Shown one piece after another: positions 8,990 through 14,585 of a DNA stretch of 36,016 nt. The stretch comes from Escherichia phage T7. Position 1 is the first letter of the stretch. Each line of letters starts with the position of its first letter. Below the pieces are notes generated by a model. It saw only the letters and a list, made by a program, of their open reading frames with translations. It made no database searches and was not told where the DNA came from. The stretch lies in sequence record PV223880.1. One strand, given 5' to 3'. The position numbers and the translations under genes were made by a program.

Positions 8990-9012
8990 TAATTGAACTC
9001 ACTAAAGGGAGA
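8990..9012 (+). promoter_or_regulatory. phi3.8: T7 RNAP promoter phi3.8
   Basis: taattgaactcactaaagggaga. Confidence 0.85.
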
Positions 9013-9051: not shown

Positions 9052-10829
<1,778 letters not shown>

Positions 10830-10869
10830 AGAGATTGTTAAGTCACGATAATCAATAGGAGAAATCAAT

Positions 10870-12984
10870 ATGATCGTTTCTGACATCGAAGCTAACGCCC
10901 TCTTAGAGAGCGTCACTAAGTTCCACTGCGGGGTTATCTACGACTACTCCACCGCTGAGTACGTAAGCTACCGTCCGAGTGACTTCGGTGCGTATCTGGA
11001 TGCGCTGGAAGCCGAGGTTGCACGAGGCGGTCTTATTGTGTTCCACAACGGTCACAAGTATGACGTTCCTGCATTGACCAAACTGGCAAAGTTGCAATTG
11101 AACCGAGAGTTCCACCTTCCTCGTGAGAACTGTATTGACACCCTTGTGTTGTCACGTTTGATTCATTCCAACCTCAAGGACACCGATATGGGTCTTCTGC
11201 GTTCCGGCAAGTTGCCCGGAAAACGCTTTGGGTCTCACGCTTTGGAGGCGTGGGGTTATCGCTTAGGCGAGATGAAGGGTGAATACAAAGACGACTTTAA
11301 GCGTATGCTTGAAGAGCAGGGTGAAGAATACGTTGACGGAATGGAGTGGTGGAACTTCAACGAAGAGATGATGGACTATAACGTTCAGGACGTTGTGGTA
11401 ACTAAAGCTCTCCTTGAGAAGCTACTCTCTGACAAACATTACTTCCCTCCTGAGATTAACTTTACGGACGTAGGATACACTACGTTCTGGTCAGAATCCC
11501 TTGAGGCCGTTGACATTGAACATCGTGCTGCATGGCTGCTCGCTAAACAAGAGCGCAACGGGTTCCCGTTTGACACAAAAGCAATCGAAGAGTTGTACGT
11601 AGAGTTAGCTGCTCGCCGCTCTGAGTTGCTCCGTAAATTGACCGAAACGTTCGGCTCGTGGTATCAGCCTAAAGGTGGCACTGAGATGTTCTGCCATCCG
11701 CGAACAGGTAAGCCACTACCTAAATACCCTCGCATTAAGACACCTAAAGTTGGTGGTATCTTTAAGAAGCCTAAGAACAAGGCACAGCGAGAAGGCCGTG
11801 AGCCTTGCGAACTTGATACCCGCGAGTACGTTGCTGGTGCTCCTTACACCCCAGTTGAACATGTTGTGTTTAACCCTTCGTCTCGTGACCACATTCAGAA
11901 GAAACTCCAAGAGGCTGGGTGGGTCCCGACCAAGTACACCGATAAGGGTGCTCCTGTGGTGGACGATGAGGTACTCGAAGGAGTACGTGTAGATGACCCT
12001 GAGAAGCAAGCCGCTATCGACCTCATTAAAGAGTACTTGATGATTCAGAAGCGAATCGGACAGTCTGCTGAGGGAGACAAAGCATGGCTTCGTTATGTTG
12101 CTGAGGATGGTAAGATTCATGGTTCTGTTAACCCTAATGGAGCAGTTACGGGTCGTGCGACCCATGCGTTCCCAAACCTTGCGCAAATTCCGGGTGTACG
12201 TTCTCCTTATGGAGAGCAGTGTCGCGCTGCTTTTGGCGCTGAGCACCATTTGGATGGGATAACTGGTAAGCCTTGGGTTCAGGCTGGCATCGACGCATCC
12301 GGTCTTGAGCTACGCTGCTTGGCTCACTTCATGGCTCGCTTTGATAACGGCGAGTACGCTCACGAGATTCTTAACGGCGACATCCACACTAAGAACCAGA
12401 TAGCTGCTGAACTACCTACCCGAGATAACGCTAAGACGTTCATCTATGGGTTCCTCTATGGTGCTGGTGATGAGAAGATTGGACAGATTGTTGGTGCTGG
12501 TAAAGAGCGCGGTAAGGAACTCAAGAAGAAATTCCTTGAGAACACCCCCGCGATTGCAGCACTCCGCGAGTCTATCCAACAGACACTTGTCGAGTCCTCT
12601 CAATGGGTAGCTGGTGAGCAACAAGTCAAGTGGAAACGCCGCTGGATTAAAGGTCTGGATGGTCGTAAGGTACACGTTCGTAGTCCTCACGCTGCCTTGA
12701 ATACCCTACTGCAATCTGCTGGTGCTCTCATCTGCAAACTGTGGATTATCAAGACCGAAGAGATGCTCGTAGAGAAAGGCTTGAAGCATGGCTGGGATGG
12801 GGACTTTGCGTACATGGCATGGGTACATGATGAAATCCAAGTAGGCTGCCGTACCGAAGAGATTGCTCAGGTGGTCATTGAGACCGCACAAGAAGCGATG
12901 CGCTGGGTTGGAGACCACTGGAACTTCCGGTGTCTTCTGGATACCGAAGGTAAGATGGGTCCTAATTGGGCGATTTGCCACTGA
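10870..12984 (+). CDS. 5: DNA polymerase (gene 5), 704 aa, family A with 3'-5' exonuclease
   Basis: [27 protein letters not shown]... full-length 704-aa ORF. Confidence 0.98.
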
Positions 12985-13029: not shown

Positions 13030-13329
13030 ATGGCTATGACAAAGAAATTTAAAGTGTCCTTCGACGTTACCGCAAAGATGTCGTCTGACGTTCAGGCAAT
13101 CTTAGAGAAAGATATGCTGCATCTATGTAAGCAGGTCGGCTCAGGTGCGATTGTCCCCAATGGTAAACAGAAGGAAATGATTGTCCAGTTCCTGACACAC
13201 GGTATGGAAGGATTGATGACATTCGTAGTACGTACATCATTTCGTGAGGCCATTAAGGACATGCACGAAGAGTATGCAGATAAGGACTCTTTCAAACAAT
13301 CTCCTGCAACAGTACGGGAGGTGTTCTGA
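13030..13329 (+). CDS. 5.5: gene 5.5 protein (99 aa), H-NS binding
   Basis: MAMTKKFKVSFDVTAKMSSDVQAILEKDMLHLCKQVG... Confidence 0.9.
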   Translation: MAMTKKFKVSFDVTAKMSSDVQAILEKDMLHLCKQVGSGAIVPNGKQKEMIVQFLTHGMEGLMTFVVRTSFREAIKDMHEEYADKDSFKQSPATVREVF

Positions 13330-13538
13330 TGTCTGACTACCTGAAAGTGCTGCAAGCAATCAAAAGTTGCCCTAAGACTTTCCAGTCCAACTATGTACGG
13401 AACAATGCGAGCCTCGTAGCGGAGGCCGCTTCCCGTGGTCACATCTCGTGCCTGACTACTAGTGGACGTAACGGTGGCGCTTGGGAAATCACTGCTTCCG
13501 GTACTCGCTTTCTGAAACGAATGGGAGGATGTGTCTAA
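13329..13538 (+). CDS. 5.7: gene 5.7 protein (69 aa)
   Basis: MSDYLKVLQAIKSCPKTFQSNYVRNNASLVAEAASRGHISCLTT... Confidence 0.9.
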   Translation: MSDYLKVLQAIKSCPKTFQSNYVRNNASLVAEAASRGHISCLTTSGRNGGAWEITASGTRFLKRMGGCV

Positions 13539-13696
13539 TGTCTCGTGACCTTGTGACTATTCCACGCGATGTGTGGAACGATATACAGGGCTACATCGAC
13601 TCTCTGGAACGTGAGAACGATAGCCTTAAGAATCAACTAATGGAAGCTGACGAATACGTAGCGGAACTAGAGGAGAAACTTAATGGCACTTCTTGA
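13538..13696 (+). CDS. 5.9: gene 5.9 protein (52 aa), RecBCD inhibitor
   Basis: MSRDLVTIPRDVWNDIQGYIDSLERENDSLKNQLMEADEYVAELEEKLNGTS. Confidence 0.85.
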   Translation: MSRDLVTIPRDVWNDIQGYIDSLERENDSLKNQLMEADEYVAELEEKLNGTS

Positions 13697-14585
13697 CCTT
13701 AAACAATTCTATGAGTTACGTGAAGGCTGCGACGACAAGGGTATCCTTGTGATGGACGGCGACTGGCTGGTCTTCCAAGCTATGAGTGCTGCTGAGTTTG
13801 ATGCCTCTTGGGAGGAAGAGATTTGGCACCGATGCTGTGACCACGCTAAGGCCCGTCAGATTCTTGAGGATTCCATTAAGTCCTACGAGACCCGTAAGAA
13901 GGCTTGGGCAGGTGCTCCAATTGTCCTTGCGTTCACCGATAGTGTTAACTGGCGTAAAGAACTGGTTGACCCGAACTATAAGGCTAACCGTAAGGCCGTG
14001 AAGAAACCTGTAGGGTACTTTGAGTTCCTTGATGCTCTCTTTGAGCGCGAAGAGTTCTATTGCATCCGTGAGCCTATGCTTGAGGGTGATGACGTTATGG
14101 GAGTTATTGCTTCCAATCCGTCTGCCTTCGGTGCTCGTAAGGCTGTAATCATCTCTTGCGATAAGGACTTTAAGACCATCCCTAACTGTGACTTCCTGTG
14201 GTGTACCACTGGTAACATCCTGACTCAGACCGAAGAGTCCGCTGACTGGTGGCACCTCTTCCAGACCATCAAGGGTGACATCACTGATGGTTACTCAGGG
14301 ATTGCTGGATGGGGTGATACCGCCGAGGACTTCTTGAATAACCCGTTCATAACCGAGCCTAAAACGTCTGTGCTTAAGTCCGGTAAGAACAAAGGCCAAG
14401 AGGTTACTAAATGGGTTAAACGCGACCCTGAGCCTCATGAGACGCTTTGGGACTGCATTAAGTCCATTGGCGCGAAGGCTGGTATGACCGAAGAGGATAT
14501 TATCAAGCAGGGCCAAATGGCTCGAATCCTACGGTTCAACGAGTACAACTTTATTGACAAGGAGATTTACCTGTGGAGACCGTAG
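13683..14585 (+). CDS. 6: 5'-3' exonuclease (gene 6), 300 aa
   Basis: MALLDLKQFYELREGCDDKGILVMDGDWLVFQAMSAAEFD... Confidence 0.97.
   Translation: MALLDLKQFYELREGCDDKGILVMDGDWLVFQAMSAAEFDASWEEEIWHRCCDHAKARQILEDSIKSYETRKKAWAGAPIVLAFTDSVNWRKELVDPNYKANRKAVKKPVGYFEFLDALFEREEFYCIREPMLEGDDVMGVIASNPSAFGARKAVIISCDKDFKTIPNCDFLWCTTGNILTQTEESADWWHLFQTIKGDITDGYSGIAGWGDTAEDFLNNPFITEPKTSVLKSGKNKGQEVTKWVKRDPEPHETLWDCIKSIGAKAGMTEEDIIKQGQMARILRFNEYNFIDKEIYLWRP

Follow-up and report, generated by a model that had tools for sequence, protein, structure and literature searches.

The short gene 4 to gene 5 spacer of phage T7 record PV223880 as the very probable scar-free product of a designed gp4.3-4.7 deletion in reduced-genome T7-B

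In the SMART method, the phage T7 genome was divided into ten BAC-cloned segments (Zhang et al., mBio 2025, PMC12153263). Genes gp1.4, gp1.7, gp3.8, gp4.3-gp4.7, gp5.3, gp7.7, and gp19.5 were deleted via Red/ccdB recombineering with 80-nt oligos, the gp0.4-0.7 segment was left out, and phages were then assembled and rebooted (PMC12153263). One product, T7-B, in which gp19.5 was kept, has a genome of 36.0 kb with 3.9 kb removed and was picked as chassis; its deletions were confirmed by PCR and whole-genome sequencing (PMC12153263). T7-B is given as PV223880 in Table S1 of that paper, and in Table S2 its gp4.3-4.7 deletion is placed at 13,279-14,297 (1,019 bp), with citation of an earlier list of non-essential genes. 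Loss of a "large fragment" covering gp4.3-4.7 in T7, which the authors "did not design", was also reported in the CiPGr work (Yuan et al., NAR 2022, PMC9825161). The earlier study cited in Table S2 is presumably this CiPGr work, going by sequence and record names.

The window analyzed here is the whole of record PV223880.1 (36,016 bp), and wild-type coordinates refer to V01146. Genes 4 and 5 are separated by 1,087 nt in wild-type T7 (V01146/NC_001604), an interval holding the end of gene 4.2, phi4.3, 4.3, 4.5, R4.7, phi4.7, and 4.7, vs 68 nt in the window. Gene 4, promoter phi4c, the gene 5 ribosome-binding site, and gene 5 itself (apart from one substitution, D197N) are the same in both. The features at the junction are as follows.

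9101-10801, + strand: gene 4A primase/helicase, with the 4B start at 9290 (from the open reading frame list; same coordinates annotated in PV223881).
10802-10869, + strand: gene 4 to gene 5 spacer, 68 nt, without promoter, terminator, or unusual fold.
10814-10815, no strand: deletion junction, wild-type 13278 joined to wild-type 14298 (Table S2 of PMC12153263 gives 13,279-14,297).
10815-10851, + strand: gene 4.7 remnant, the last 37 nt, with stop codon TAA at 10849-10851 and without a start codon of its own.
10870-12984, + strand: gene 5 DNA polymerase, 704 aa, with one substitution (D197N) relative to V01146.

The gene 4A protein of the window was identical to wild-type gp4A. Its stop codon TGA lies at 10799-10801 and the gene 5 ATG at 10870-10872, so that the spacer spans 10802-10869. 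A gap of only 68 bp, with about 1019 bp missing by offset, had been claimed in the first-pass annotation of this DNA, and both values were borne out: the coordinates agree (the spacer string quoted there has 69 nt, as it counts the final A of the TGA), and base-by-base match extension against V01146 put the loss at exactly 1,019 bp (wild-type 13279-14297). The absence of genes 4.3, 4.5, and 4.7 and of promoters phi4.3 and phi4.7 was likewise found as claimed, with the exception of the retained last 37 nt of gene 4.7, a remnant located by coordinate mapping and by tblastn of gp4.7 residues 120-135. Neither the deleted DNA nor gp4.3, gp4.5, or gp4.7 was found in the interval or moved elsewhere in the window, where only promoter cores matching other T7 promoters were returned.

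The 68-nt spacer is best read as the scar-free result of a designed deletion in reduced-genome T7-B, with gene 5 fed by read-through from upstream promoters (probability roughly 0.96). Under this reading, T7 13279-14297 would have been deleted on a BAC-cloned segment by Red/ccdB recombineering with oligo HA-gp4.3, followed by assembly and reboot. The identification as T7-B rests on the tables of the paper, the oligo match, and the sister records PV223881-3. By blastn of the whole 36,016-bp window against V01146, seven internal deletions were found, with a total of 3,921 bp that is also reached by adding up the T7-B deletion sizes in Table S2 (PMC12153263). The other six T7-B deletions (0.4-0.7, 1.4, 1.7, 3.8, 5.3, and 7.7) were all in the window. 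Gene 19.5 was retained: the right end is collinear with wild type through 19.5, and 241 nt of window sequence separate the HA-gp19.5 arms, therefore this gene was not deleted. At the junction itself, the designed oligo was located directly.

10775-10854, + strand: footprint of oligo HA-gp4.3, two 40-nt homology arms (Table S7 of PMC12153263).

All 80 of its 80 nt matched the window at a single exact site, with the junction at the 40/40 midpoint. Oligo HA-gp7.7 also matched exactly, and HA-gp1.7, HA-gp3.8, and HA-gp5.3, which run to 78-79 nt in the text form of Table S7, had no exact match in the window. HA-gp1.4 appears in that text form as one 40-mer printed twice. These mismatches of the Table S7 oligos are probably typographical or PDF-conversion errors. 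In a database search, an identical junction was found in PV223881, PV223882, and PV223883. PV223881 is recombinant T7-B-G, and the window equals PV223881 minus the LysGH15 insert; the one mismatch reported falls at the edge of the insert and is an artefact of the alignment end. Coordinates, junction, the six other deletions, length, and a private gene 5 SNP are thus alike between T7-B and the window, and no difference between them was found. This construct has already been published with its coordinates and phenotype, and the deletion is real but ordinary; the locus has little discovery value and is useful as annotation.

The deleted segment is flanked in wild-type T7 by an imperfect direct repeat, the left copy of which is present in the window.

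10796-10813, + strand: left copy of the imperfect direct repeat (wild-type 13260-13277 vs 14279-14296; repeat search and alignment).

The wild-type copies, TTCTGACAGGATTCTTGA at 13260-13277 and TTCACACAGGTTTCTTGA at 14279-14296, are identical at 15/18 positions. Their spacing is exactly 1019, equal to the loss, as would be expected if the segment had been shed by a spontaneous, microhomology-mediated deletion between repeats at the gene 4 end and the gene 4.7 end, in the manner of CiPGr. The same 1,019 bp were in fact absent from 25 CiPGr-series records (MZ375xxx and OL964741), which were taken to be from the CiPGr work, going by names and sequences. In these mutants (MZ375246-MZ375290, OL964741), as in the window, gene 5 follows gene 4 after 68 nt; the loss arose undesigned during Cas9-driven passaging, and the sets of other deletions differ from those of the window. 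The junctions also differ. The sampled CiPGr-series junctions lie inside shared bases and take two forms, ...CAGGATTCTTGAC (MZ375274) and ...CAGGTTTCTTGAC (MZ375246 and OL964741), with the other 22 records falling into the same two identity classes. The window junction, ...CAGGATTCTTGAT/AGTTG, has a complete left copy and zero shared base at the join, i.e., it reads …TTCTTGAT AGTTG and not the shared-base form …TTCTTGAC AGTTG. With a 61-nt junction probe, every CiPGr-series record (25/25) differed from the window by 1-2 bases, and in the three aligned records the differences were confined to the repeat, whose last position has C where the window has T and whose fifth position, in some clones, has T where the window has A. 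A spontaneous origin was rejected on these grounds, the junction base being unlike those of the sampled CiPGr junctions and equal to synthetic oligo HA-gp4.3, and it is considered very improbable. The window form of the junction was restricted to three SMART-derived records and lacks the shared base, therefore it is best taken as a designed copy of a deletion that was first seen spontaneously.

Among the CiPGr mutants, two crossover points were observed in the same repeat (relative to V01146 13260-13277 and 14279-14296), which points to two or more independent events or to subsequent gene conversion. Rather unlikely, in our judgment, is a broader role for this locus, in which the repeat would be a candidate preferred recombination point where T7-like phages shed or swap the accessory (anti-defence) 4.3-4.7 cassette, and, separately, the loss of R4.7 and two promoters may measurably alter how stable and how abundant gene 5 mRNA is.

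The 4.3-4.7 module varies among natural relatives, as would suit a natural T7-like phage in which it was never present or was lost in nature. In EcoDS1 (Studiervirinae), gp4.3 stands alone in an interval of 239 bp, which shows that 4.5 and 4.7 are dispensable accessory content, and the inserts of T7M and phiA1122 are shorter than that of T7. Studiervirinae with a reduced 4.x module, e.g., EcoDS1, nevertheless retain gp4.3 or more and an interval of 239 bp, and their DNA is only ~75% identical. No natural genome with a 68-nt gene 4 to gene 5 spacer was found among the matches listed (a spread of 60), in which natural inserts were at least 239 bp and the 68-nt spacer was seen only in laboratory-mutant records. 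Given flanks identical to laboratory T7 and six other deletions that fit the published design, a natural variant was rejected and has a negligible probability. Equally negligible is an assembly or sequencing artefact by collapse of the imperfect repeat: short repeats do flank the lost segment, but an 18-nt repeat with 83% identity is too weak for a 1-kb assembly collapse, three derivative genomes, deposited independently, share the junction, and the deletions were borne out in the authors' PCR and whole-genome sequencing.

The designed deletion in T7-B removes, per the reference annotation, the last 48 nt of gene 4.2, phi4.3 (start 13341), genes 4.3 and 4.5, phi4.7 (start 13915), and gene 4.7 minus its final 37 nt; the R4.7 RNase III hairpin is lost as well. 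The effect on gene 4.2 is a changed reading frame end.

10524-10829, + strand: gene 4.2 open reading frame with altered C-terminus, 101 aa vs 112 aa in wild type.

The first 97 aa are those of wild type, and the last 15 aa of wild type, DFPDDYEKFRWRVPF, are replaced by SCFI. The open reading frame list and the protein comparison thus agree with the earlier statement that the nested gene 4.2 frame ends at 10829 with a changed C-terminus. The truncated frame still matches Pfam DUF5480 over residues 22-92. Among the lost proteins, gp4.5 was assigned to Pfam PF17574 TA_inhibitor ("Inhibitor of toxin/antitoxin system (Gp4.5)") and gp4.3 to DUF5471, and no Pfam family was matched by gp4.7.

Loss of R4.7, which is listed as an RNase cleavage site (PMC6938266), was a point absent from the first-pass annotation. 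A strong hairpin at wild-type 13854-13903, within the deleted DNA, was predicted at -23.1 kcal/mol (z -4.1) and lies directly ahead of phi4.7, at the place given for R4.7. A homologous feature is annotated in the T7M record as "RNase III recognition site R4.7"; an R4.7 feature annotation was also sought in AY264774 and PP384404, neither of which lists one.

In order to locate the promoters available to gene 5, the window was scanned with the 23-nt T7 consensus TAATACGACTCACTATAGGGAGA; known promoters were recovered, and true class II promoters had 2-7 mismatches. Two promoters upstream of the junction and the translation start of gene 5 bear on its expression.

8990-9012, + strand: class II promoter phi3.8, start 9007, retained; TAATTGAACTCACTAAAGGGAGA, equal to wild-type 11163-11185 and annotated in V01146.
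10190-10212, + strand: class II promoter phi4c in gene 4, start 10207; CAATCCGACTCACTAAAGAGAGA, equal to wild-type 12654-12676.
10857-10861, + strand: gene 5 Shine-Dalgarno AGGAG, same as in wild type.

Of the T7 promoters ahead of gene 5, phi4c is the closest, 663 nt before the ATG. No T7 promoter was found in 10761-10900, where the best match had 11/23 mismatches, which leaves the interval free of the consensus as the first-pass annotation had held. From phi3.8 to the gene 5 start, searches for sigma-70-like sites and for + strand terminator-like sites found none, and at the junction there was neither an unusual RNA fold (z-score +0.25) nor an Rfam family. Terminators are absent from this part of the T7 class II region, and RNase cleavage sites are R3.8, R4.7, and R6.5 (PMC6938266). 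Dependence of gene 5 on upstream promoters such as phi4c and phi3.8, as previously proposed, fits the sequence, with both promoters intact and no terminator-like site between. Read-through from phi4c, phi3.8, and earlier class II promoters is the most likely source of gene 5 transcripts: T7 RNA polymerase would start at these promoters and read through into gene 5, placing gene 5 and gene 4 on one uncut R3.8-to-R6.5 RNA. RNA processing around gene 5 would presumably be altered by the loss of R4.7. The AGGAG site is unchanged because window 10815-10872 is identical to wild-type 14298-14355, and gene 5 would be translated from this ribosome-binding site of its own.

T7-B is a viable phage whose plaques resemble those of wild type and whose burst is 197±9 vs 224±9, values that apply to all seven deletions together (PMC12153263). 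The polymerase supply is evidently sufficient for near-normal growth on the laboratory host, because plaques and burst are near those of wild type. T7 DNA polymerase can thus still be expressed when both of its nearest promoters and the processing site R4.7 are gone.

The main consequence of the deletion is probably that 4.3 and 4.5 are lost, accessory genes for which roles against host defences have been reported (PMC11482910). In a genome-wide T7 knockout study, 4.2, 4.3, 4.5, and 4.7 were grouped as low-essentiality genes, 4.5 was more important on UTI strains with CcdAB, and deletion of 4.3 or 4.5 reduced plating on a RADAR system by ~70% (PMC11482910). Given these effects on CcdAB strains and RADAR, the cost of the deletion is expected to be host-dependent. 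The loss would be costly under host defence, gp4.5 being a reported inhibitor of Lon and of toxin-antitoxin systems and gp4.3 and gp4.5 being reported to act against RADAR. This therapeutic or expression chassis lacks gp4.5 and gp4.3, which are dispensable on laboratory strains, and it may infect a narrower range of clinical strains.

A single substitution was observed in gene 5, where G-to-A at position 11458 gives D197N in T7 DNA polymerase relative to V01146. Among 172 phage records matching a 61-nt stretch, the change was found only in three SMART-derived genomes and is therefore private to the T7-B construct lineage. It may have arisen while a toxic segment was being cloned in a BAC.

Three other deletion edges in the window alter neighboring elements. 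The gene 1.4 deletion (wild-type 7609-7764) cuts promoter phi1.5 (window 6124-6146, junction 6127/6128); positions -16 to -14 are altered, TAAT to TTTA, and consensus mismatches rise from 4 to 7. Promoter phi1.5 may be weakened by this change, which was passed over without comment in PMC12153263. The gene 3.8 deletion (wild-type 11268-11558; window 9052-9100) stops 6 nt before the gene 4A ATG, so that the native upstream …CTAGGAGGGAATTGC ATG becomes the 3.8-derived …CCGAGGAGGCAATTGC ATG, with GGAGG kept at similar spacing. A 3.8 remnant open reading frame of 24 codons reads into gene 4. At the gene 0.3 (ocr) edge, only gp0.4-0.7A is listed as deleted in PMC12153263. The 0.4-0.7 deletion nevertheless takes the final 6 codons of gene 0.3 in the window (925-1320); the gene instead runs on for 20 unrelated codons (131 aa vs 117 aa).
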